Shown here: positions 4,493-44,356 of the stretch, piece after piece
Numbering within the stretch: the stretch's first letter is position 1
How the letters are laid out: every line of letters begins with the position of its first letter
From: an uncultured Holophagae bacterium
GTDB taxonomy: Bacteria; Acidobacteriota; Thermoanaerobaculia; Thermoanaerobaculales; Sulfomarinibacteraceae
DNA length: 64,000 nt
Reading direction: 5' to 3'
Assembly (NCBI GenBank): GCA_963710645.1
Contig: CAVQBD010000009.1
Span: 1,551,199-1,615,198, forward strand
The notes under the pieces: model-generated
Told to the model about the DNA's origin: nothing
The model's database searches: none
The model's input: only the letters and a program-made list of their open reading frames with translations
Position numbers and translations under genes: made by a program

Positions 4493-7192
4493 ATGACGTC
4501 ACATCGTTTCACCCGATACAGGACAGTCTCAACCTTCACACTCGTGATGGCTCTGGTGTCGATCACTGCGGTGGCGCAGGACGGGACCGGGGTCATCACC
4601 GGAACGGTGACTGGATCTGCGGGCAATGCCATTGAGAGCTGTCGGGTCACCATTGAGGACATGAACAGGGAAGCCACCACCGGGATGGACGGCACATACC
4701 GGTTGGCTCCGGTACCGGCAGGAGAGAGAACCCTGGTCTTCAGTTTTCTCGGGCTGCAACCGGGAACCGCCACGGTGACGGTTGTGGCGGGTGAGACCGT
4801 CAACCTGGACATGACCCTTCTCTACGGTGGTGAGATCGAGGTTCGTGGATCACCGTTGCTGGTCGGGCAGGCAAAAGCGCTCAACCAGCAAAAGAACGCC
4901 ATCAATATCTCGAACATCGTGGCCGCCGACCAGATCGGCCGCTTCCCCGACAAGAATGCCTCCGAGGCGACCCAGCGAGTGCCCGGTGTCAGTCTGGCGC
5001 GCGACATGGGTGAGGGCCGTTACGTCATCATCCGCGGCACCGAGGCCAGGCTCAACTCGACCACGGTCAACGGCGAGCGGATTCCGTCGCCGGAAGCGGG
5101 CGTCCGGAACGTCGCCCTCGACACCATCCCGGCTGATCTCCTGGGCTCGATCGTGGTTTCGAAGGCCCTGAGACCGGACATGGACGGCGACTCCATCGGC
5201 GGCACCGTCGATCTGGTGACCATGAGGGCTCCCGAAGAGACTCGGGTGTCGGCCGCCCTTGGTTTTGGCTACAGCGAGCTGATGGAAGAAACAGCCCCCA
5301 CCGGCACTGCCACCTTCGGGACTCGATTCGGACCCGATTCGAAGTGGGGTGTGCTGGTATCGGGAAGTTATAGCGACACCAAGCGTGGGGCCGACAACAT
5401 CGAGCCGGCGTACGACGACGGCGAACTCGAAGAACTCGAGATGCGCGATTACACCACCGAGCGTCAGCGGTCCGGCATCACAGCCGACCTCGACTACCGG
5501 GCAAACGCCCGCTCGAACTACTATCTCCGCGGTCTTTGGACCAACTACGTCGACGATGAAATCCGGCGCGCCAAGACCAACAAGGTTGCCGATGAGGAAC
5601 TCGAGCGATCGCTCAAGGACCGCAAGCAGGAGTCCTACATCAACTCCATTTCCTTCGGCGGCGAGAACAACATCGGTGAGGCCTTCGTCCTCGACTACCG
5701 CGTGATGTACAACAAATCACAAGAAGAAACCGACCACCAGTACACCTCGGCCTTCGAGATGGGAGACGTGATCTTTGATACCAACGTCAGTCCCGATTCC
5801 ATCGACCCGAACAACATTCAGGCCAATCCGCTAAACGAGGATCCCGCCGATTTCTGGTTCGCGGACATCGAGGACCTGAGCAAGCAAGCCCACGAGGAGG
5901 ACTTTGTCCTCGCCGCCAACCTCACCAAGGGCTTCTACAAAAACGCAGGTTTCAGCGGGCTTTGGAAGGTGGGCGCGAAGTACCGGACCAAGAACAAAGA
6001 CCAAAACTACGACGTCTACGACCTCGAGGCGGATGACGACTTGAACATGGTTCCGTTTCTGGACGACTGGAACTCCGAGACCCCGTTCTTCAACGGGATC
6101 TATGGTGATCAAATTTTCCCGTTCCAGGACCCCGATCTCATGAGGGAGCTCGGCGCGAGCGGGCTCCTGGAATCCGAGAGAAATCTGGAGGAGGATCTCG
6201 CCGACTTCGATATCACCGAGGACACCCTGGCCGCCTATGCCCTGGGCGAATTCCTCTTCGGCGCGAAATCCACCTTCATGGGTGGCGTTCGAGTGGAGAG
6301 CACGTCGGATGACTACATGGCCTACGAGCTGATCCTGGATGAAGAAGGAGACGCGGTGTCGCTGTTGCCGGTTTATGGCGACAAGAGTTGGACCGAGTGG
6401 CTGCCCCAGTTCCACTTCATCTACAAGACCGGAAACGACTCTCAGCTCCGCGCCGCCATCACCCGCAGTCTGGCCCGGCCAAACTTCGAGGACATGGCCC
6501 CGTGGCGGCTGACCAACCTGGAGGACCGTGAAGTCGAACTCGGCAATCCCGATCTGGATGTCACCACCGCCTGGAACCTCGATCTCATGTGGGAGAAGTA
6601 CCTGCAACCGGTGGGCATCCTCTCGGCTGGGGTCTTCTACAAAGACCTGACCGACTACATCTACATCTTCCAGGTCGATGACGTCATCGAAGGCGAAGAT
6701 GTGGAAATCACCCAGCCGCGAAACGGCGACAAGGGCACCTTGGCGGGCCTCGAGTTCGCCTTCCAAAACCAGTTCACAAACTGGGATGGATTCTGGGGAG
6801 GATTTGGTCTCTACCTCAACTACACCTACGTCGACTCCGACGCCAAGTACCCGGACCGTGAGTCTACCTCGCTGCCCGGGCAGTCGGAACACGTGGGCAA
6901 CCTCGCGCTGGTCTACGAGAAGTACGGCATCACCACCCGGCTGGCATACAACTACAACGGCAAACAGCTGATTGAGGTTGGCGGGGACGCCGACGAGGAT
7001 ATTTATGTCGACGACCACGGCCAGCTCGACTTCATGTTCCGTATCCAGGTCGCGAAGAGGTTCAGCATCATCGCCGAGATCATCAACATCACCGACGAGC
7101 CGTACACCGCCTATGAAGGCACCCCGGACCGGATCCGCCAGCAGGAGTACTACAGCTGGTGGGCGACGCTCGGCGTGAGGTTCGACCTTTAG
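4493..7192 (+). CDS. TonB-dependent outer-membrane receptor with N-terminal carboxypeptidase-regulatory-like domain
   Basis: 899 aa. Signal peptide, CarbopepD_reg-like GVITGTVTG...GTYRLAPVPAGERTLVFSFLG, plug region (NISNIVAADQIGRFPDKNASEA) and long beta-barrel ending ...TLGVRFDL. Strong SD GGAGAGGGAGG upstream. Confidence 0.9.
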   Translation: MTSHRFTRYRTVSTFTLVMALVSITAVAQDGTGVITGTVTGSAGNAIESCRVTIEDMNREATTGMDGTYRLAPVPAGERTLVFSFLGLQPGTATVTVVAGETVNLDMTLLYGGEIEVRGSPLLVGQAKALNQQKNAINISNIVAADQIGRFPDKNASEATQRVPGVSLARDMGEGRYVIIRGTEARLNSTTVNGERIPSPEAGVRNVALDTIPADLLGSIVVSKALRPDMDGDSIGGTVDLVTMRAPEETRVSAALGFGYSELMEETAPTGTATFGTRFGPDSKWGVLVSGSYSDTKRGADNIEPAYDDGELEELEMRDYTTERQRSGITADLDYRANARSNYYLRGLWTNYVDDEIRRAKTNKVADEELERSLKDRKQESYINSISFGGENNIGEAFVLDYRVMYNKSQEETDHQYTSAFEMGDVIFDTNVSPDSIDPNNIQANPLNEDPADFWFADIEDLSKQAHEEDFVLAANLTKGFYKNAGFSGLWKVGAKYRTKNKDQNYDVYDLEADDDLNMVPFLDDWNSETPFFNGIYGDQIFPFQDPDLMRELGASGLLESERNLEEDLADFDITEDTLAAYALGEFLFGAKSTFMGGVRVESTSDDYMAYELILDEEGDAVSLLPVYGDKSWTEWLPQFHFIYKTGNDSQLRAAITRSLARPNFEDMAPWRLTNLEDREVELGNPDLDVTTAWNLDLMWEKYLQPVGILSAGVFYKDLTDYIYIFQVDDVIEGEDVEITQPRNGDKGTLAGLEFAFQNQFTNWDGFWGGFGLYLNYTYVDSDAKYPDRESTSLPGQSEHVGNLALVYEKYGITTRLAYNYNGKQLIEVGGDADEDIYVDDHGQLDFMFRIQVAKRFSIIAEIINITDEPYTAYEGTPDRIRQQEYYSWWATLGVRFDL

Positions 7193-7208
7193 GGAAACGA
7201 GAAACATC

Positions 7209-8240
7209 ATGAAGGACGTGATCGTCGGCGTTGTCGGCATCGGTCGAATCGGCCGGATGCACGTGTACAACTTGGTGCACCGGATCCCATGGGCCCGGGT
7301 GAAGGCGGTGGCCAGCCCGCATATCGACGTGGACTGGGCTCGTCAAATGGACATCCCCGTGGCCACCACGGATGCCGATGCGCTGTTTCACGATCCTGAA
7401 ATTCAGGCAATCGTCATTGCTTCCCCCTCGGGGCGGCACGTCGAGCTGATTCGGCGTGCCGCCCATTCGGGAAAGCACATCTATTGTGAAAAACCGGTCG
7501 CCTTCGAGGAGGAACCCATTCTCGAGGCGATGCAAGCCGTTGAGACCGCCGGGGTTCAGCTCCAGGTGGGTTTCAATCGCCGCTTCGACCCCAGCATCTG
7601 CCGGATGGCCGAAGCGGTCCGCGACGGAGCGGTGGGCTTGGTCGAGGGTGTACGGATCGTCAACCGCGATCCGTCCGCCCCGCCCATCGATTTTGTGCGG
7701 CGGTCCGGCGGCATGTTCTTCGATTTCACGATCCACGATTTCGACACGGCCAGGTTTCTGAGCGGCAGCGAGATCGAGGAGGTCTACGCGGCAGCGGCGG
7801 TGCTGATCGACCCGGAGATCGGCGCCGCCGGTGACATCGACACTGCGCTCTTGACCCTGCGGTTGGCCAACGGCGCCCTGTGCACCATCGACAACAGCCG
7901 CCAGACTAACTACGGCTATGACCAGCGGTTCGAGGTCTTCGGATCAAAGGGTAATCTGGTGGTGGACAATCTCCGACCCACCACCATGGAGGCCTTTCTG
8001 GAAGGCGGAGTTTTTGCAGACAAGCCCCTTCCCTCGTTTCCCGATCGATACCAGGACGCATTCGTCAGCGAGCTGGAGGCCTTCGTCGGCTGCGTAGCCG
8101 ATGGTTCGCCGGTGTCGGTCACGGCCGCCGACGCGCTGGCGTCGGTGCGGGCCGCAAAAGCGGCAAGGACCTCGATGTTGGAAAACAGACCGGTGCGGGT
8201 CGCATCTGTGACGACGACCGGGGAAGGGGTCGGCCGATGA
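7209..8240 (+). CDS. Gfo/Idh/MocA-family NAD(P) oxidoreductase, inositol 2-dehydrogenase-like (paralog 1)
   Basis: 343 aa. Rossmann start VGVVGIGRIGRMH and EKP motif (IYCEKPVA), in an inositol-pathway context. Confidence 0.8.
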   Translation: MKDVIVGVVGIGRIGRMHVYNLVHRIPWARVKAVASPHIDVDWARQMDIPVATTDADALFHDPEIQAIVIASPSGRHVELIRRAAHSGKHIYCEKPVAFEEEPILEAMQAVETAGVQLQVGFNRRFDPSICRMAEAVRDGAVGLVEGVRIVNRDPSAPPIDFVRRSGGMFFDFTIHDFDTARFLSGSEIEEVYAAAAVLIDPEIGAAGDIDTALLTLRLANGALCTIDNSRQTNYGYDQRFEVFGSKGNLVVDNLRPTTMEAFLEGGVFADKPLPSFPDRYQDAFVSELEAFVGCVADGSPVSVTAADALASVRAAKAARTSMLENRPVRVASVTTTGEGVGR

Positions 8241-38900: not shown

Positions 38901-39194
38901 GCCGCAGTTGAGAGCCGTCTGGCCGCCAAACCCGAGGAGAATCCCGTCGGGCTTTTCCTTCTCGATCACCTGTTCCACAAATTCGGGCGTGACCGGGATG
39001 AAGTAGATCTCGTCCGCGAGGTGTTCCGAGGTCTGGATCGTGGCCACGTTGGGGTTGATGAGCACGGTCCGGATGCCCTCTTCTTTGAGGGCCTTGATCG
39101 CCTGGCTGCCGGAGTAGTCGAATTCGCCCGCTTCGCCGATTTTCAGCGCAGAGCTCCCGAGCACGAGGACGGTGTTGGGAAGGTCGTTTCTCAT
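35997..39194 (-). CDS. carB: Carbamoyl-phosphate synthase large subunit
   Basis: 1065 aa. Duplicated ATP-grasp halves and an MGS-like C-terminus. Unmistakable CarB blocks throughout. Confidence 0.97.
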   Translation of the reverse strand: MRNDLPNTVLVLGSSALKIGEAGEFDYSGSQAIKALKEEGIRTVLINPNVATIQTSEHLADEIYFIPVTPEFVEQVIEKEKPDGILLGFGGQTALNCGVELYRQGLLEKHGIRVLGAPIESVLDTEDRERFVARLAEVEVDVPRSRPTTSIDEAVAAGLEIGFPCMARVAFALGGLGSGICRTEEELRKLAKKAFAHTEQVLVEEYLEGWKEIEYEVMRDAYDNCITVCNMENIDPMGIHTGESLVVAPSQTLDNSEYHQLREIATRVVRHLGIVGECNIQYALSPTGEGYRVIEINARLSRSSALASKATGYPLAFVAAKLALGFSLTEVENSVTRSTCACFEPALDYVVVKAPRWDFQKFPGVEQRIGSAMKSVGEVMAIGRRLEETLQKALRMTETGARGLVLNDRMTFDDLRTALAEPTEQRIFAVAEAIRTGISVDEIHEITHIDHWFLDKIANIVAIAQRLETRDLEEIDHELMLEAKQHGFSDFQIGIAVGADEDRVRESRHKLKLHPAVKQIDTLAAEYPAATNYLYLTYNGTEDDVTYGQEGAVMILGPGAYRIGSSVEFDWCCVNAARTLRELGYRTLMVNHNPETVSTDYDECDRLYFDELSFEAVSEIYSKETPLGIMLSMGGQVPNNLALRCHEMGMRVLGTSPRSIDRAENRHSFSSLLEKLGVPQPAWQELSSVDETQRFAHQHGYPVIVRPSYVLSGAAMAVAGTDEELTIFLDKAVDISPDHPVVVSKFIENAKEIDVDAVARDGELVCSAVSEHVENAGVHSGDATLVLPPQRTYLETMRRVRVITTQVARSMNITGPFNIQFLAKDNRVMVIECNLRASRSFPFVSKVLKRNFIDAATRVMMGRPVETDERSHLDLDYVGVKAPHFSFTRLEGADPTLGVEMASTGEVACLGWDFDEAFLKALIAVGFKLPIKNALLSTGPIESKAAFQDSARRLVKLGVELYATQGTADFLADKGIETTVLHWPLDKAQPNAVDFIKEGRLDLVINIPKHFQKEELTNDYIIRRTAVDFGVPLITNRQLAERLTEALERVPIDQLKVRPWREYGG

Positions 39195-40297
39195 GCGTTC
39201 CTCCCCTTCACCACCGTGGCGAAGTCGTCAAAAATCCAAGCCGAGTCCACCGGTCCCGGGTTCGCCTCGGGGTGAAACTGAACACTCCGGATCGGCTTGG
39301 AAACGTGACGTATGCCCTCCACTGTGTCGTCGTTGGCGTTGACGAACCACAGCTGCCAGTCCGGGGGCAGCGAGTCGGCGCGGACGGCGAAGCCGTGGTT
39401 CTGGGAGGTGATCACACACCGCCTGCCGCGCTCTCCGGAGGGCAGCATCTCGACACACGGTTGGTTCTGGCTGCGGTGGCCAAAGGGCAGTTTGAAGGTC
39501 TCAGCGCCGGCGGCCAACGCCAGGAGTTGATTGCCGAGGCAGATTCCCAGGATCGGCACATCCAGCGCCAGTGCGCGTTCGATATTGCGAATCGCCGCCG
39601 AGCACATCCTGGGATTGCCAGGCCCATTGGAGATCAACAGCCCGTCAAAGGCCATGCCGGGAAAATAGTGATCGTGGGGTACTCGAACCACATCCAGACC
39701 GCGGTCGAGCATGCTGCGGATGATGCTCGTCTTGCAGCCACAGTCGAGAAGCGCCACCGTTGGGGCACCGTCCAACCTACACCTGTAGTGGACCACGTCG
39801 TCGACGCTGACCGTGGCCACGAGGTCGGTGGCGTTGGGATCCACAAGGGTCACTCCTTCGGTGGTTCCCCGGGGCTCGATGGCGCCGAGCATCGTGCCTT
39901 TTTCGCGGAGTCGCTTGGTCAATGCGCGGGTGTCCACCGCGGCCAGGGCCGGGATGCCCTCGCCGGTGAGCCAGGCGTGGAGAGATCGGGTGGCAAGGTG
40001 GTGGCTGTAGCGCTCTGAGTTCTCCCAAACCACCAGCCCCGCCGCCTGGATTTTTTCGGACTCGAAACCCACCGGCAGTCCCCGGTCGTCGAGGCCATAA
40101 GGTGGCACGCCGTAGTTTCCCACGAGGGGATAGGTGAGCACCAAGATCTGACCCGCGTATGACGGATCGGTGAGCGACTCCGGATACCCCACCATGCCGG
40201 TGTTGAAGACCACCTCTCCGGCGACCGGCTCTTCGGCACCAAACGCGATTCCCTCGAAGACAGACCCGTCCTCGAGCCGCAACCGTCCTCGTCCCAT
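39191..40297 (-). CDS. carA: Carbamoyl-phosphate synthase small (glutaminase) subunit
   Basis: Track ORF 39191..40582 trimmed to MGRGRLRLEDGSVFEG (369 aa). GICLGNQLL catalytic Cys and QFHPE. Overlaps the carB start. Confidence 0.95.
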   Translation of the reverse strand: MGRGRLRLEDGSVFEGIAFGAEEPVAGEVVFNTGMVGYPESLTDPSYAGQILVLTYPLVGNYGVPPYGLDDRGLPVGFESEKIQAAGLVVWENSERYSHHLATRSLHAWLTGEGIPALAAVDTRALTKRLREKGTMLGAIEPRGTTEGVTLVDPNATDLVATVSVDDVVHYRCRLDGAPTVALLDCGCKTSIIRSMLDRGLDVVRVPHDHYFPGMAFDGLLISNGPGNPRMCSAAIRNIERALALDVPILGICLGNQLLALAAGAETFKLPFGHRSQNQPCVEMLPSGERGRRCVITSQNHGFAVRADSLPPDWQLWFVNANDDTVEGIRHVSKPIRSVQFHPEANPGPVDSAWIFDDFATVVKGRNA

Positions 40298-40455
40298 CAA
40301 CACCCCCGTCGTACAACCGCCCCGATCTGGATCCGACGGCGTCCGACCGGGGCCGCATCGTGGTTCTGGGGCGGGAGTGTAACAGGTCGAATCAGGGTGC
40401 CGGTGGGTCGGTTCCCCGTCCGCCGACGCCCGCTGGCAGCGGCGCGGCCGGTGAG

Positions 40456-40484
40456 TTGACCTGGGGTGGATCCTCACATAGCAT
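40456..40484 (+). promoter_or_regulatory. Candidate sigma70-type promoter giving a leaderless BLUF mRNA
   Basis: TTGACC (40456-40461), 17-nt spacer, TAGCAT (40479-40484). The ATG at 40491 lies 7 nt after the -10 element, and there is no SD sequence. Confidence 0.35.
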
Positions 40485-40490
40485 CTGTCA

Positions 40491-40916
40491 ATGTTCAAGA
40501 GAATCAAATACGTGAGTCGGTTCGAAAAACCAATGTCCGCGGATGCCATCGAGCAGATCGGCGAACTGTCGCGGAAAAACAACGAGAGTCTCGGCCTGAC
40601 AGGCCTCCTGATGTCATCCGGCGGGATCTTCTATCAGGTGCTGGAAGGACCGGCGGAAGCAGTGGACGATGTCTACCGGCGTATCGTCGCCGACGGACGT
40701 CATACGGATCTGGTGCTCATCAGCTCCGTGGAAAACGTGGAGCGCCTGTTCCCGGACTGGTCCATGGAAACCATCAACCTGGACGCGGACTCTCACGTCC
40801 GACTGTTCCCGTTGAAGGCGCTGATCAAGGCCGTGTTCGAGCAGAGTCGTCTGATGGAGAACATGATGTGGGCCATCGAGCGCACGGTGCAGCACGAGAT
40901 GCGGCGGAGTGACTGA
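40491..40916 (+). CDS. Short BLUF-domain blue-light FAD photoreceptor
   Basis: 141 aa. The conserved Tyr (RIKYVSRF), Gln (GIFYQVLEG), DGRH and WSM are all present. Confidence 0.9.
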   Translation: MFKRIKYVSRFEKPMSADAIEQIGELSRKNNESLGLTGLLMSSGGIFYQVLEGPAEAVDDVYRRIVADGRHTDLVLISSVENVERLFPDWSMETINLDADSHVRLFPLKALIKAVFEQSRLMENMMWAIERTVQHEMRRSD

Positions 40917-40954
40917 CGGAATCTCGCCTTAGGGCGGTGGGTTCTAGAAACAGC

Positions 40955-42799
40955 ATGGTCAACCGACGCCTCCGTCGCGTGTGCCTGCTCGGGCTTGTTT
41001 TGGCGTTCTCCGCCTTGTCCGTCCAAGCAGAGGAACAATGCCAGTGGCGTTGGGATGGGGTTGAGCGCGTGGTCGTTGTGGGTGACGTTCACGGCGCCTA
41101 TGACTCGCTCATCGGCATTCTCCGCGAGGCCGGTTTGATCGACGCCGACACCATCTGGTCCGGCGGCGAGGACCACCTGGTCATGCTGGGCGACCTCGTG
41201 GATCGGGGCCCCGACTCCAGAAAGGCGCTGGCCCTGATCATGCGGCTCCAGCACGAGGCGGAGGAGGCCGGCGGCCGGGTTCACGTGGTGCTCGGCAACC
41301 ATGAGGTCATGGATCTGGTTGGCGAACTCAGCTACGTCAACCCCTCCGAGTTTGCAGCCTTCTCAAAGGAGGAGGATGCCAAGCAACGCAAGGCGGCCTT
41401 CAAGCGAACGCTGAAGTCGTCGGTGTCGCAGAACGGCGATCTCGGCAAGATGCGCAAGGTCTTCGCCAACAGGTATCCCCCCGGCTACTTCGGTCACCGC
41501 CAAGCCTTCTCCCCGGACGGCCTCTACGGAAAGTGGCTGTTGCGTCAGTCGGTCCTCGTGGTGGTGAACGACGTCGCCTTTGTTCACGGCGGCCTGCCCC
41601 CGATGCTGCTGGAAATCGAGCCGGACCAGATCAATCCGGTGGCCATGGGCGAGCTGCGGCAATTCATGGATGCCCGCCAGCGGTTGATGGAGTTCGGGGT
41701 GCTTGGGCCGGAGATGTCGTACAACCAGCAGATCAGCCAGGTCAGTGAGATTGTCGAAGATCCGACGAGCCGGCCGGAGGTCGTGGCCGCTGCCAAGCAG
41801 CTCTTCCAGGCGGCCGAAGGTATGGTCTTCCGCCGGGACGGCCCCCTCTGGTATCGCGGGCTCGCGCTTAACCCCGAGGTTGACGAACAGGCTCTGGTGG
41901 ACGACGTGCTCGAGCACGTGGGGGCCGATCGTGTGATCGTGGGCCACACCCCGGTCCACACCGACAGAATCGCGACCCGGTTCGACGGTGCCGTGGTCAT
42001 GGCCGACACCGGGATGCTGACCGAGCATTATGGCGGACGGGCGTCCGCGGTGGAGATGACAGATGGGGTTCTCTCTGCGCTCTACACCGGTGAGGGCGCG
42101 ATGGCGCTCGAGGACCAGCGGTGGGACCTGACTCCCGGTCTATTCAGCGGACCCGATGAGGTGGTGGTGTTTCTCGAGTCGGCGCCGGCGGTCTCCATTG
42201 AATTGGTCGGGTCTGGGTCCACCCATCCCAAGGAAGTGATCCTGGCGGATAACGGTCGCCGGTGTCGCGCCATCTTCAAGGATGTGGACGAGGGAGATCG
42301 GAGCTACGCGAACGAGATCGCCGCCTTCAAGCTGGACCGCATGCTTGGTCTCGGCATGGTCCCACCCACCGTGGTGCGCGAGATCAACGGCACCACCGGC
42401 TCGCTCCAACTCTATGTGGAGAACGCCATCAACGAAGAAGACCGGCTGGCCGAGGACCTCTGGCCCGCAGACAGGAGTGGCTTCCAAGAGCAACGGGAAC
42501 GCGCCGGTGTCTTCGACGTGCTGATCTTCAATATCGACCGGAACGGCAGCAACACTCTCATCACCACCAACGACTGGCAGATCCACCTCATCGACCACGA
42601 GCAGGCACTCAAACCCAGCCTGCCGAGTCCGTACCACCTCGAGGACGGGCGCGGCTTGCTCGATGGGGATTTTGCTGCAGCGCTGGCGGCGCTCGACCCG
42701 GAGGAAGTCCGCGCCGAGATCGGGGATCTGCTCACAGACCAGGAGATCGATGCGCTCTTCGAACGGCGCGATTTGATCCTAGCCGACGACACTGAATAG
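40955..42799 (+). CDS. Exported fusion protein: PPP-family metallophosphatase domain plus PI3/PI4-kinase-like domain
   Basis: The track ORF starts at 40937. I prefer the ATG at 40955. Signal/anchor segment LLGLVLAFSALSVQA. PPP motifs GDVHG, GDLVDRG, GNHE. The C-terminus has AIFKD, LDRMLGLGMVPPTVVRE, GSLQLYVE, FNIDRNGSN and LIDHEQAL, which look like kinase VAIK/catalytic-loop/DFG equivalents. Confidence 0.65.
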   Translation: MVNRRLRRVCLLGLVLAFSALSVQAEEQCQWRWDGVERVVVVGDVHGAYDSLIGILREAGLIDADTIWSGGEDHLVMLGDLVDRGPDSRKALALIMRLQHEAEEAGGRVHVVLGNHEVMDLVGELSYVNPSEFAAFSKEEDAKQRKAAFKRTLKSSVSQNGDLGKMRKVFANRYPPGYFGHRQAFSPDGLYGKWLLRQSVLVVVNDVAFVHGGLPPMLLEIEPDQINPVAMGELRQFMDARQRLMEFGVLGPEMSYNQQISQVSEIVEDPTSRPEVVAAAKQLFQAAEGMVFRRDGPLWYRGLALNPEVDEQALVDDVLEHVGADRVIVGHTPVHTDRIATRFDGAVVMADTGMLTEHYGGRASAVEMTDGVLSALYTGEGAMALEDQRWDLTPGLFSGPDEVVVFLESAPAVSIELVGSGSTHPKEVILADNGRRCRAIFKDVDEGDRSYANEIAAFKLDRMLGLGMVPPTVVREINGTTGSLQLYVENAINEEDRLAEDLWPADRSGFQEQRERAGVFDVLIFNIDRNGSNTLITTNDWQIHLIDHEQALKPSLPSPYHLEDGRGLLDGDFAAALAALDPEEVRAEIGDLLTDQEIDALFERRDLILADDTE

Positions 42800-42892: not shown

Positions 42893-43120
42893 TCAGTAGT
42901 AGGGCACGGCGACCGGCGGTCCGACCACGACGACGCCACCGCCACCGTATCCCGGATAACCGCCGTAACCCCAGCCGGGACCGTAGCCACCATAGCCGTA
43001 GCCGTGGCTCACCCCCACATACGTTGTTGTCGAGCCGTCAGCGGAAGTGCAGCCGGTCAACCACAGGACTGCGACCACAACCAGGAGAAGGGACGCCAGC
43101 GTCCGCATTGGATGTTTCAT
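42893..43120 (-). CDS. Small Gly/Tyr-rich lipoprotein
   Basis: 75 aa. Lipobox LTGC followed by GYGYGGYGPGWGYGGYPGYGGGG. Overlaps the stop of the upstream VOC gene. Confidence 0.55.
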   Translation of the reverse strand: MKHPMRTLASLLLVVVAVLWLTGCTSADGSTTTYVGVSHGYGYGGYGPGWGYGGYPGYGGGGVVVVGPPVAVPYY

Positions 43121-43971
43121 TTCGAGGCCCCCTCTTCTTTGCGCTGGTAGACGAAGAACGCCGCTCCGCTTGGGTCGGCGAGCAGGGCCACCGAACCGAG
43201 GCTGCTGAATGTACCGGGCTTTGCCAGGACGGTGCCGCCGAGCGTTGGGGTGCGGGCGAGCACGTCTTCGAGATTGGCCACCAGAAGGTACGGCGCCCAG
43301 ATCGGTTCGACCTTATCGTGCGGGGTCTTCACCAGCCCCGCCCGTATCTGGCCCCCCGTCTTGAAGACCTGGTAGGGCGCACCCCCGACATCGGTCTGGT
43401 CCTTTTCGTAACCGACGACCTTCTCGTAGAAGGCGGCGGCGGAGTCCGGGTCCCGGGCCCACAGCTCGGCCCAAACCCAGCTGCCGGGTCCACGGTCACC
43501 GCCCAGGGTCGTGACCGGGTCGAGCAACATCACCGGGACTCCCTCGGAATCGGAGATGACGGCATAGCGGGCGTAACCCACGGAGTCGGCGGGTTGGACG
43601 TGAACGGTCGAGCCGCGTTTTGATGCCCGTTTGACCGCCTTGTCCACGTCGTCAACCACGATGCCGGCAAGCCAGAAAGCCCCGTTGACGTCAGGCTTCT
43701 GGTTTGGGATCTGGCTGATACCGGCGATGGGCCGGCCGTTGTGGACCACCACGTAGTGCTGTGGAGTGTGTACCTGTATCTCCCAACCGAAGAGCTCGCG
43801 GTAGAAATCCAGCACGGCGTCGGCGTCCTCGGTGAGCAGATCGAACCAGACCACCGCCCCGGGGGCCGGGGGAGCCGACGGTTGAGAATTCTGCGCGTCA
43901 GCGTGTCCGATGGGCATGACAGCCAGCCCGATAAATATCAGAGCGATGGTGGCCGTTTTTCGGATGTTCAT
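43117..43971 (-). CDS. Secreted VOC (glyoxalase/bleomycin-resistance fold) family protein, two repeats
   Basis: Track ORF 43117..44280 trimmed to MNIRKTATIALIF (signal peptide), preceded by GAAGGAG. The VWFDL...FYRELFGW and WAELW...FYEKVVGY repeat pattern is typical of VOC tandem domains. Confidence 0.7.
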   Translation of the reverse strand: MNIRKTATIALIFIGLAVMPIGHADAQNSQPSAPPAPGAVVWFDLLTEDADAVLDFYRELFGWEIQVHTPQHYVVVHNGRPIAGISQIPNQKPDVNGAFWLAGIVVDDVDKAVKRASKRGSTVHVQPADSVGYARYAVISDSEGVPVMLLDPVTTLGGDRGPGSWVWAELWARDPDSAAAFYEKVVGYEKDQTDVGGAPYQVFKTGGQIRAGLVKTPHDKVEPIWAPYLLVANLEDVLARTPTLGGTVLAKPGTFSSLGSVALLADPSGAAFFVYQRKEEGASK

Positions 43972-44065
43972 GAAAACTCCTTCACCGAGTGTGTACGCAC
44001 AACCGATCCACGAAGATACAGCAATTAGGGAGATCCTTGGATTCCCGGGACCATGAGAAGCTGTT

Positions 44066-44078
44066 GGTGCCAGGCACC
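44066..44078. repeat. 13-bp perfect palindrome GGTGCCAGGCACC
   Basis: Read directly in the VOC/mscS intergenic region. The same 13-mer occurs at 54387-54399, and near-copies GGATGCCAGGCAC at 31968 and 32029. Confidence 0.7.
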
Positions 44079-44356
44079 GTCGCAGATGTCGCGATCTCGT
44101 GCTCCGTTGCACGACGGTGCATTCCCGACCGCTCCCCGAGGTGCCCCAGAATGATGCGACTCGAGGGCTGATGACGCGATCAGGTCCCGACATTGTGAAC
44201 GACGCACGCCGCTCCCGCACCCACTCCCTGCATGGCTCGCTCCCGCTTTGCTCCCTGCTCCTGCGCCTCTCCCCCCCCACCCCCCTGGCGATGCAAACAC
44301 GCCTGCGCTAAGGTGTGGGTTCCAAAAAACTAAAGAGGCACGAGAGGAGAAGACGC

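Follow-up and report, generated by a model that had tools for sequence, protein, structure and literature searches.

Short BLUF photoreceptors such as PixD (Slr1694), BlrB, BlsA and PapB are proteins of about 140-150 residues in which a single BLUF domain is followed by a short C-terminal helical extension. They carry the conserved Tyr, Gln, Trp and Met and no output domain, so signalling goes through a protein partner, as in the pairs PixD-PixE, PapB-PapA and BluF-BluR. Here we analysed a 64,000-nucleotide (nt) stretch of DNA, referred to as the window, from an uncultured Holophagae bacterium (assembly GCA_963710645.1, contig CAVQBD010000009.1, positions 1,551,199 to 1,615,198, forward strand), in which a gene for a short BLUF protein is followed on the same strand by a gene for a fusion of a phosphatase domain and a kinase-like domain. 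The sequence-only reading of this DNA had proposed that the two genes form a new light-signalling arrangement. Our results point to another explanation, to which we give a probability of roughly two in three: the BLUF gene and the fusion gene are independent of each other and lie side by side because one acidobacterial lineage inherited them in that order. The window BLUF protein resembles the described short BLUF proteins in the features above, and differs from them in that a conserved partner gene is not evident and a promoter-like element is kept 6 nt from its ATG.

The two halves of the fusion have different described relatives. The Shewanella phosphatase, or Shelph, is the best structural match of the N-terminal half, and the motifs GDxHG, GDxVDRG and GNHE are invariant in the fusion. 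The Shewanella and Plasmodium Shelph enzymes are phosphotyrosine-specific (PMC5658161), and apicomplexan Shelphs have signal peptides or reside in the endoplasmic reticulum (PMC5658161, PMC9769683). Unlike these enzymes, the phosphatase here is joined to a kinase-fold domain. The nearest structures to the C-terminal domain are PI4KII alpha and beta, which have in common with it the Lys, a DRxxxN-like loop and the metal-binding Asp of an IDH/IDN motif; in contrast to PI4KII, the bacterial domain has only about 215 residues, is predicted to be exported and stays below the threshold of the Pfam PI3_PI4_kinase model. The best sequence-profile matches in the PDB are the Fam20 proteins (Fam20C, Fam20B and Fam20A), which work outside the cytosol with ATP delivered across a membrane. 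The Golgi imports ATP for Fam20C. The bacterial domain differs from Fam20 in having no Pfam Fam20C match listed at E <= 0.01, and Fam20 is not its nearest fold. The Fam20 cluster has been described as specific to eukaryotes or Metazoa (PMC9758233), and a review of Fam20 mentions no prokaryotic homologues (PMC7948968).

Opposing phosphoryl-transfer activities in one polypeptide are also found in bacterial Pnkp, AceK and PFK-2/FBPase-2, and the metallophosphatase domain of Pnkp matches the fusion weakly. Unlike the fusion, these enzymes are cytoplasmic and have other kinase folds, and none of them combines a phosphatase of the phosphoprotein phosphatase (PPP) family with a PI4K/Fam20-like domain. 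Lastly, Major et al. 2017 (PMC5381601) showed that free-living bacteria commonly carry genes for NTT-type nucleotide transporters and for NTT-HEAT(-cNBD) fusions, whose function is unexplained; nowhere does its main text use the word "kinase". The same kinds of gene flank members of the fusion family elsewhere, but none is present in this window.

Conservation of the BLUF-fusion adjacency

The gene neighbourhoods of 80 species-representative fusion loci (L001-L080) from Gammaproteobacteria, Acidobacteriota, Desulfatiglandales and Myxococcota were searched for BLUF genes within 6 kb of the fusion gene, using phmmer (E <= 10) and then a profile hidden Markov model (HMM) built from 121 sequences (E <= 1), which recovers all positive controls. 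A BLUF gene was found in only one locus (L001), and 79 of the 80 were without it. L001 is the closest relative of the window among the 80; it belongs to a Holophagae metagenome-assembled genome, and its fusion is 68% identical to that of the window. Direct look-ups revealed the pair also in L081, L082 and L084 (fusion proteins 85% and 66% identical, and one locus beside a BLUF protein 83% identical). BLUF adjoins the fusion in five loci only (the window, L081, L084, L001 and L082), and all five are one syntenic block, with carB-carA on the BLUF side and a 75-residue lipoprotein gene and a glyoxalase gene beyond the fusion.

The locus L083, whose fusion is 60% identical, has no BLUF gene, even by tblastn; carA/carB still lie on its upstream side, and the lipoprotein and glyoxalase genes still follow the fusion. 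The orthologues of the BLUF protein in L089 (77% identity), L085 (75%), L086 (73%) and L090/L091 (62%) lie in unrelated contexts in which the fusion is absent (4 of 9 BLUF contexts). No conserved partner gene is common to the four non-syntenic BLUF contexts, and three of them have a convergent gene as the next one after BLUF. Taken together, these neighbourhoods indicate that the pairing is limited to one shallow acidobacterial (Holophagae-like) clade and behaves as inherited synteny. The claim of a new light-signalling arrangement is not supported: the pair is confined to one syntenic clade, BLUF is missing in L083, and the fusion has a cleavable-looking Sec signal, described below together with the separate promoter-like motifs of the two genes. 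A pair without wider conservation and an N-terminus that looks like an export signal are two of the findings that the sequence-only reading had named as refuting it. The light-signalling module does not hold, and there is no new class of photoreceptor output to claim. As a side observation, the fusion gene of L001 is split into overlapping frames (5971-7182 and 7055-7828), and its database protein (P0041) has only 403 residues; the cause is a frameshift or else a fault in the assembly.

The BLUF gene and its probable leaderless start

The BLUF gene (40491..40916, plus strand) encodes a protein of 141 residues without an output domain. Pfam BLUF (PF04940) matches this protein at E 1e-26 (93.3 bits, where the cutoff is 25) over positions 3-92 of the 92 in the profile, and the translation contains Tyr7, Asn31-Asn32, Gln49 and Trp90-Ser91-Met92. 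We take Tyr7, Gln49, Trp90 and Met92 to be the counterparts of PixD Tyr8, Gln50, Trp91 and Met93. The domain match and the translation thus agree with the sequence-only reading, which had described an intact BLUF protein with its photocycle residues and no output domain. A homology search returned 149 relatives with identity down to about 52%, and among the matches listed nearly all have 138-180 residues. The homologues form a family of stand-alone short BLUF proteins, and the window protein joins the short-BLUF group as a new and unremarkable member.

A promoter-like element, TTGACC-17-TAGCAT (40456..40484, plus strand; 9 of 12 matches in a consensus scan), ends 6 nt before the BLUF ATG: six bases lie between TAGCAT and the start codon, and the A of ATG is the seventh. 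The ATG at 40491 is the earliest start codon downstream of an in-frame stop, and no purine-rich run resembling a Shine-Dalgarno (SD) sequence is found upstream of it. A scan for sigma-70-type sites found two in 3 kb, compared to 0.3 expected from shuffled sequences. When the 60 nt 5' of nine BLUF genes were aligned, TTGAC(C/T)-17/18-TAGCAT-6-ATG was found to be kept in eight of the nine loci with an identical 6-nt spacing, and the DNA further 5' was diverged and could not be aligned. Three of the eight genes that bear the element (L085, L089 and L090) sit in quite different genomic contexts. Because the element accompanies the gene at a constant distance of 6 nt from the ATG, these results support a leaderless mRNA, and the BLUF gene is probably transcribed without a leader from its own sigma-70-type promoter, as the conserved geometry suggests. 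The leaderless start that had been proposed earlier is therefore plausible, given the fixed spacing in eight of nine loci and the missing SD sequence. This promoter-to-ATG geometry is a tidy candidate for a leaderless mRNA in a lineage that its nearest relatives place in Acidobacteriota.

The orthologue in L086 (73% identity; around 4990-5000) is without TAGCAT-6-ATG and has an SD-like GGGAGAA 8 nt before its ATG. The BLUF family may alternate between leaderless and SD-led starts. A second sigma-70-like match in the window, TTGACC-18-TAGGAT (42805-42776, minus strand), overlaps the fusion stop codon. Known only as a match to the consensus, it would start antisense transcripts that run into the fusion gene from its 3' end.

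A promoter-like motif of the fusion gene

The 38-nt spacer between the two genes contains a second conserved motif, GGAAT-N18-GTT (40918..40943, plus strand), which lies 11 nt before the fusion ATG and which we picked out by its conservation as a candidate promoter of the type read by extracytoplasmic function (ECF) sigma factors. It is kept in the window, L081, L082, L084 and L001 despite an indel of about 60 nt in the spacer. In L083, which has no BLUF gene, it is found at 4870-4895, with 12 nt between it and the earliest start codon of the fusion open reading frame (ORF). The motif resembles ECF-sigma promoters such as GGAAT-N18-GTT of SigR/SigH. It is absent upstream of fusion genes in other phyla, and no ECF sigma gene was found within the 64-kb window. 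A separate, ECF-sigma-type promoter for the fusion gene is possible on this pattern of conservation, and the position of the motif hints at a very short leader on the fusion mRNA too.

Domains, fold and catalytic residues of the fusion protein

The fusion gene starts at an ATG at 40955, 38 nt past the BLUF stop codon on the plus strand, and ends at 42799. It encodes 614 residues; translation from a GTG at 40937 would instead yield 620, and an identical database protein (P0001) has 614. The position and strand given in the sequence-only reading stand, and the length of 615 residues given there is corrected to 614. The motifs GDVHG, GDLVDRG, GNHE, DRNGSN and IDH and the lysine in AIFK were all found in the translation. 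Two domains were delimited: a Shelph PPP metallophosphatase domain that contains a helical insertion (41045..42139, plus strand; Pfam Metallophos, Foldseek and residue conservation) and a PI4KII/Fam20-like kinase-fold domain (42146..42796, plus strand; domain model, Foldseek, family profile and conservation).

An AlphaFold2 model of the full-length protein was built from a 91-sequence alignment and reached a mean predicted local distance difference test score (pLDDT) of 92.1 and a predicted template modelling score (pTM) of 0.83. Pfam Metallophos matches the fusion at E 3e-14. In Foldseek searches against the PDB, the best matches of the phosphatase domain were the structures of the Shewanella cold-active protein tyrosine phosphatase (2zbm, 2z72 and 1v73; best E 8e-20, target template modelling (TM) score 0.67-0.71, 23% identity for the top match), and PP5 and calcineurin trailed at E of about 1e-7. 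Since the Shewanella phosphatase is far ahead of PP5 and calcineurin, the N-terminal domain is identified from the model as a Shelph-type PPP phosphatase. D44, H46, D80, R84, N115, H116, H211 and H331 are invariant in all 91 sequences. The motifs ADTGM (D351-T352-G353) and VGHT (G330-H331-T332) are also invariant or nearly so in the family; we take (I/L/V)D(S/T)G and GHT to be the bacterial-like C-terminal motifs of the Shelph (Shewanella-like) subgroup of PPP phosphatases.

The kinase domain modelled alone reached a pLDDT of 92.9. Its best Foldseek matches were PI4KII beta (8a5x, E 2.7e-8) and PI4KII alpha (4hnd, query TM score 0.69), with E values from 2.7e-8 to 9e-7, query TM scores of 0.52-0.69 and 19-23% identity for the two proteins; PI3K/PI4KIII, PRPK, Helicobacter pylori CtkA and Rio1 came after them. 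When a kinase-domain profile built from 17 sequences was searched against PDB sequences, it matched FAM20A (E 3.9e-11), zebrafish Fam20C (2.5e-7), FAM20C (4.3e-7), FAM20B (4.4e-7) and C. elegans Fam20, then PI4KII. The motifs EIAAxxLDR..VPPT and FDxLIxNxDR are common to the kinase domain and Fam20, and Fam20 structures were not among the top 50 Foldseek matches of the fusion or the kinase domain. By sequence, the fusion family thus links bacterial proteins to the Fam20 kinases.

The library models gave weaker matches. PI3_PI4_kinase (PF00454) scored the window fusion below threshold (E 5e-4, 20.5 bits compared to a cutoff of 27.1), as did HipA_2 (PF20613; 16 bits compared to 27), and an NCBIfam model of the kinase-like SCO1664 family gave a weak match (E 4e-11). 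At E <= 0.01, PI3_PI4_kinase matched 9 and HipA_2 matched 16 of 24 sampled family members; among the matches of these 24 there was no Pfam Fam20C and a single FAM198. The kinase fold of the modelled C-terminal domain is solid, and its scores leave it outside formal membership of Pfam PI3_PI4_kinase or Fam20C. Thus the profile and structure searches upheld both halves of the architecture that had been read from motifs: a PPP phosphatase, from the Metallophos match, the Shewanella-type fold and the invariant motifs, and a PI3/PI4-kinase-like domain, from the PI4KII fold matches and the FAM20/PI4KII profile matches.

The catalytic residues of the kinase domain are kept in most of the 91 sequences: K442 in 84 (92%), E454 in 81, D528 in 75 (82%), R529 in all 91 (100%), N533 in 83 (91%) and D547 in 87 (96%). 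The G419-x-G421-x-T423 loop is nearly invariant across the family. The window fusion itself carries all six residues and the glycine-rich loop, and from these residues both halves of the protein look catalytically competent.

Predicted export of the fusion protein

The fusion begins with a signal-peptide-like segment (40955..41029, plus strand), MVNRRLRRVCLLGLVLAFSALSVQA, which is followed by EEQ. It was recognised with a sequence heuristic on n-, h- and c-regions: the basic n-region RRLRR is followed by VCLLGLVLAFSALSV and then by V-Q-A ahead of EEQ, with a hydrophobic core of 15 residues, small residues at -3 and -1 and acidic residues after. Of 89 family members, 75 have a comparable N-terminus by the same heuristic; the inspected members that did not pass start within or just before the hydrophobic core, which fits truncated gene calls. 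In the AlphaFold2 model this segment is a detached helix of low confidence. The N-terminal signal or anchor sequence noticed in the sequence-only reading is thereby supported as a pattern of the window protein and of its family. It looks like a cleavable Sec signal peptide, which would place the enzyme outside the cytoplasm, the compartment in which BLUF resides.

The kinase-domain profile was also run against 1.84 billion representative proteins and matched 7,570 clusters at E <= 1e-3, 963 of them at E <= 1e-30. Many of these clusters are stand-alone proteins of about 260-300 residues, and an N-terminal hydrophobic signal-like segment was present in five of six such relatives that were inspected. 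The kinase-like domain appears, from these N-termini, to belong to a generally exported family. One representative protein (P0245) has two tandem kinase-like domains.

The fusion family and a possible source of ATP

The homology search with the fusion returned at least 3,555 proteins at E <= 1e-5 (among 8,000 candidates scored). Full-length members have about 580-700 residues and the same architecture, and in databases they are only unnamed or "hypothetical". In open-access papers we found no description of a fusion of a PPP phosphatase with a Fam20- or PI4K-like domain, which is weak evidence, and the same literature yielded no description of bacterial Fam20 homologues or of periplasmic kinases with nucleotide transporters. 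The architecture had been called undescribed, and this stands insofar as no paper describing it was found; it is not rare, and a large family is already in the databases. This large unnamed family of predicted-exported Shelph and PI4KII/Fam20-like fusions, with both catalytic centres conserved, is the more interesting part of the locus. Cultured carriers are available (Pseudohalioglobus lutimaris HF004, Thioalkalivibrio sp. XN8 and Halieaceae bacterium WMMBA4), and experiments are feasible.

No neighbour is universal across the 80 fusion loci. The commonest one elsewhere is a membrane protein homologous to TLC/NTT ATP/ADP transporters (Pfam TLC 47.5 and 49.6 bits compared to a cutoff of 21; best PDB sequence match "ADP,ATP carrier protein 1"). 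By tblastn, a TLC gene lies within 6 kb of the fusion in 34 of the 80 loci, and a second query added three acidobacterial loci, giving 37; the link is lacking in the other 43. Thirty of the TLC genes directly adjoin the fusion gene in convergent or co-directional orientation, and the linked taxa are Gammaproteobacteria, Desulfatiglandales and Acidobacteriota. In Pseudohalioglobus lutimaris HF004 (L036, 3785-5134, plus strand), the TLC gene starts 31 nt past the fusion stop codon on the same strand, and another TLC/NTT homologue lies near the fusion in L010 (2658-4472, minus strand). In L092 (1120-4335, plus strand) and L003, genes for an NTT-HEAT-cNMP_binding protein, a response regulator, a histidine kinase and the fusion are co-directional, and the histidine kinase and fusion genes overlap by 4 nt. 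An exported kinase in bacteria with two membranes raises the question of its ATP source, and the NTT/TLC adjacency is a concrete and testable answer: by analogy with the import of ATP into the Golgi for Fam20C, the exported kinase domain could receive its ATP in the periplasm through an ATP/ADP exchanger. The idea is a lead at the level of the family and not a feature of the window, and the nucleotide-transporter link, the most interesting aspect of the fusion, lies outside this window.

Other candidate neighbours were less consistent. A cluster of downstream ORFs in 26 loci was rejected, in that the plus strand has no Pfam match and looks non-coding and the real gene is the TLC homologue, mostly on the minus strand. 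An OmpA-family protein was also rejected as a conserved neighbour, being present in only 5 of 80 loci. An adenylate/guanylate cyclase-domain protein with TPR repeats was found in 16 of 80 loci, and lies upstream of the fusion in L008 (2435-4747, plus strand). In L046 and L066, fusion-like tblastn matches flank the TLC homologue, a sign that it may lie between two fusion-like genes.

Weighing the explanations

If the two genes are independent, the BLUF gene would be a self-contained unit with a leaderless mRNA made from its own sigma-70-type promoter close to the ATG, and its protein would be cytoplasmic and, as in other short BLUF proteins, signal through a cytoplasmic partner. The fusion would be a Sec-exported bifunctional enzyme, with a Shelph phosphatase packed against a PI4KII/Fam20-like kinase; the 38-nt spacer would probably provide its promoter, and its substrate, which it would probably phosphorylate and dephosphorylate, would be in the periplasm or envelope. 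In many other genomes an adjacent TLC/NTT-type ATP/ADP exchanger may supply the ATP needed there. Of this reading, the domains, the fold, the conserved residues, the signal-like N-termini of the family and the distribution of neighbourhoods are direct observations; export, the leaderless start, the separate promoter, catalytic activity, the compartment of the substrate and the ATP supply are inferences. Several observations weigh against this reading. GGAAT-N18-GTT occurs once in the 64-kb window compared to 1.0 expected by chance from shuffled sequences, and because this single copy is at chance level the weight of the motif is solely comparative, from six related loci. Export is predicted for the fusion from sequence features only, D528 is substituted in 16 of 91 family members, some of which may be pseudokinases, and no TLC homologue was found in the 64-kb window or in L001 and L081-L084. 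Within the window clade the pair persists to fusion identities of about 63-66%, and its two genes share a strand and are separated by 38-100 nt in which no intrinsic terminator is predicted; read-through co-transcription, and hence some light-linked expression, is possible. The last points would also fit a light-responsive module in the window clade, in which envelope phosphorylation responds to blue light through co-transcription from the BLUF promoter or through BLUF control of a sigma or anti-sigma factor for the fusion promoter. In favour of such a module are the 38-nt gap on one strand without a terminator-like hairpin, the adjacency in five loci whose fusion proteins are as little as 66%, maybe 63%, identical, and the need of short BLUF proteins for a partner. 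We consider it quite improbable, since the adjacency is confined to one syntenic block and was lost in L083 though the neighbours were kept, since the 79 other fusion loci and four other BLUF contexts are without the pair, and since the fusion retains its promoter-like motif in L083 without BLUF, the predicted compartments of the two proteins differ and the window lacks an ECF sigma gene. Contact between the two proteins would be conceivable if the N-terminus of the fusion, whose topology is so far only predicted from its sequence, were an uncleaved membrane anchor with the catalytic domains in the cytoplasm. This is very improbable indeed: four Arg precede the hydrophobic core, and the positive-inside rule puts the C-terminal bulk outside; the core has only about 15 residues and is followed by V-Q-A and acidic residues, a typical signal peptidase I site, in a family-wide pattern; and the characterised relatives of both domains are secretory or extracytoplasmic (PMC5658161 and PMC9769683 for Shelphs, PMC7948968 for Fam20).

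The kinase-like domain could also lack kinase activity and, as a pseudokinase or a module for ligand binding, guide an exported phosphatase to its substrate, for example in phosphate scavenging or tyrosine dephosphorylation. The periplasm is generally held to lack ATP, substitutions occur at K442 (7 of 91) as well as at D528, the Pfam kinase models score only below threshold, and the best PDB sequence match, FAM20A, is itself a pseudokinase. Against this stand the full set of catalytic residues and the glycine-rich loop of the window protein, most of them kept in more than 90% of the family, the occurrence of the domain alone as a predicted exported protein, and the frequent adjacency to ATP/ADP transporters, which is hard to explain without nucleotide use; on balance we regard the pseudokinase explanation as unlikely. 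A bolder extension of the independent-gene reading is that the fusion and its stand-alone exported kinase relatives form a bacterial extracytoplasmic phosphorylation system that acts on envelope or secreted substrates with ATP from the adjacent NTT/TLC exchanger, as a prokaryotic counterpart and possibly a source of the eukaryotic secretory-pathway kinase/phosphatase machinery, to which BLUF could add light-dependent read-through in the window clade. We put this forward tentatively, as a proposal that is doubtful in its full extent. If true, it would give a role to the unexplained NTT transporters of free-living bacteria (PMC5381601).

Genes surrounding the pair

The gene divergent from BLUF is carA, which encodes the small subunit of carbamoyl-phosphate synthase (39191..40297, minus strand; ORF list, with relatives of 368-369 residues that have CPSase_sm_chain and GATase domains). 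The mechanically called carA ORF (39191-40582, minus strand; 463 residues from a TTG) runs across the BLUF promoter and start and is an over-extension. The true start is probably the ATG at about 40297, as indicated by the calls of 368-369 residues in relatives, and this start would leave a divergent intergenic region of 193 nt between carA and BLUF.

Convergent with the fusion gene is a gene for a Gly/Tyr-rich lipoprotein of 75 residues (42893..43120, minus strand), recognised from its translation by the lipobox LTGC and without a Pfam match. About half of its mature part is Gly and Tyr, and the gene overlaps the start of the glyoxalase-domain gene by 4 nt. The alignment shows that the lipoprotein is kept in L081-L084, including L083, which is without BLUF. 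A Tyr-rich exported lipoprotein beside an enzyme with Shelph (tyrosine phosphatase-type) and kinase domains is conceivable as a substrate, in an association confined to the window clade. As a family-wide partner or substrate it was rejected: a strict filter recovers only the window and L081, and aligned orthologues occur only in the window clade. The next gene encodes a glyoxalase/VOC-domain protein (43117..44280, minus strand; Pfam Glyoxalase E 8e-20) that is syntenic in L081-L084; its ORF is listed at 387 residues, and its relatives are called at 284-286 residues.

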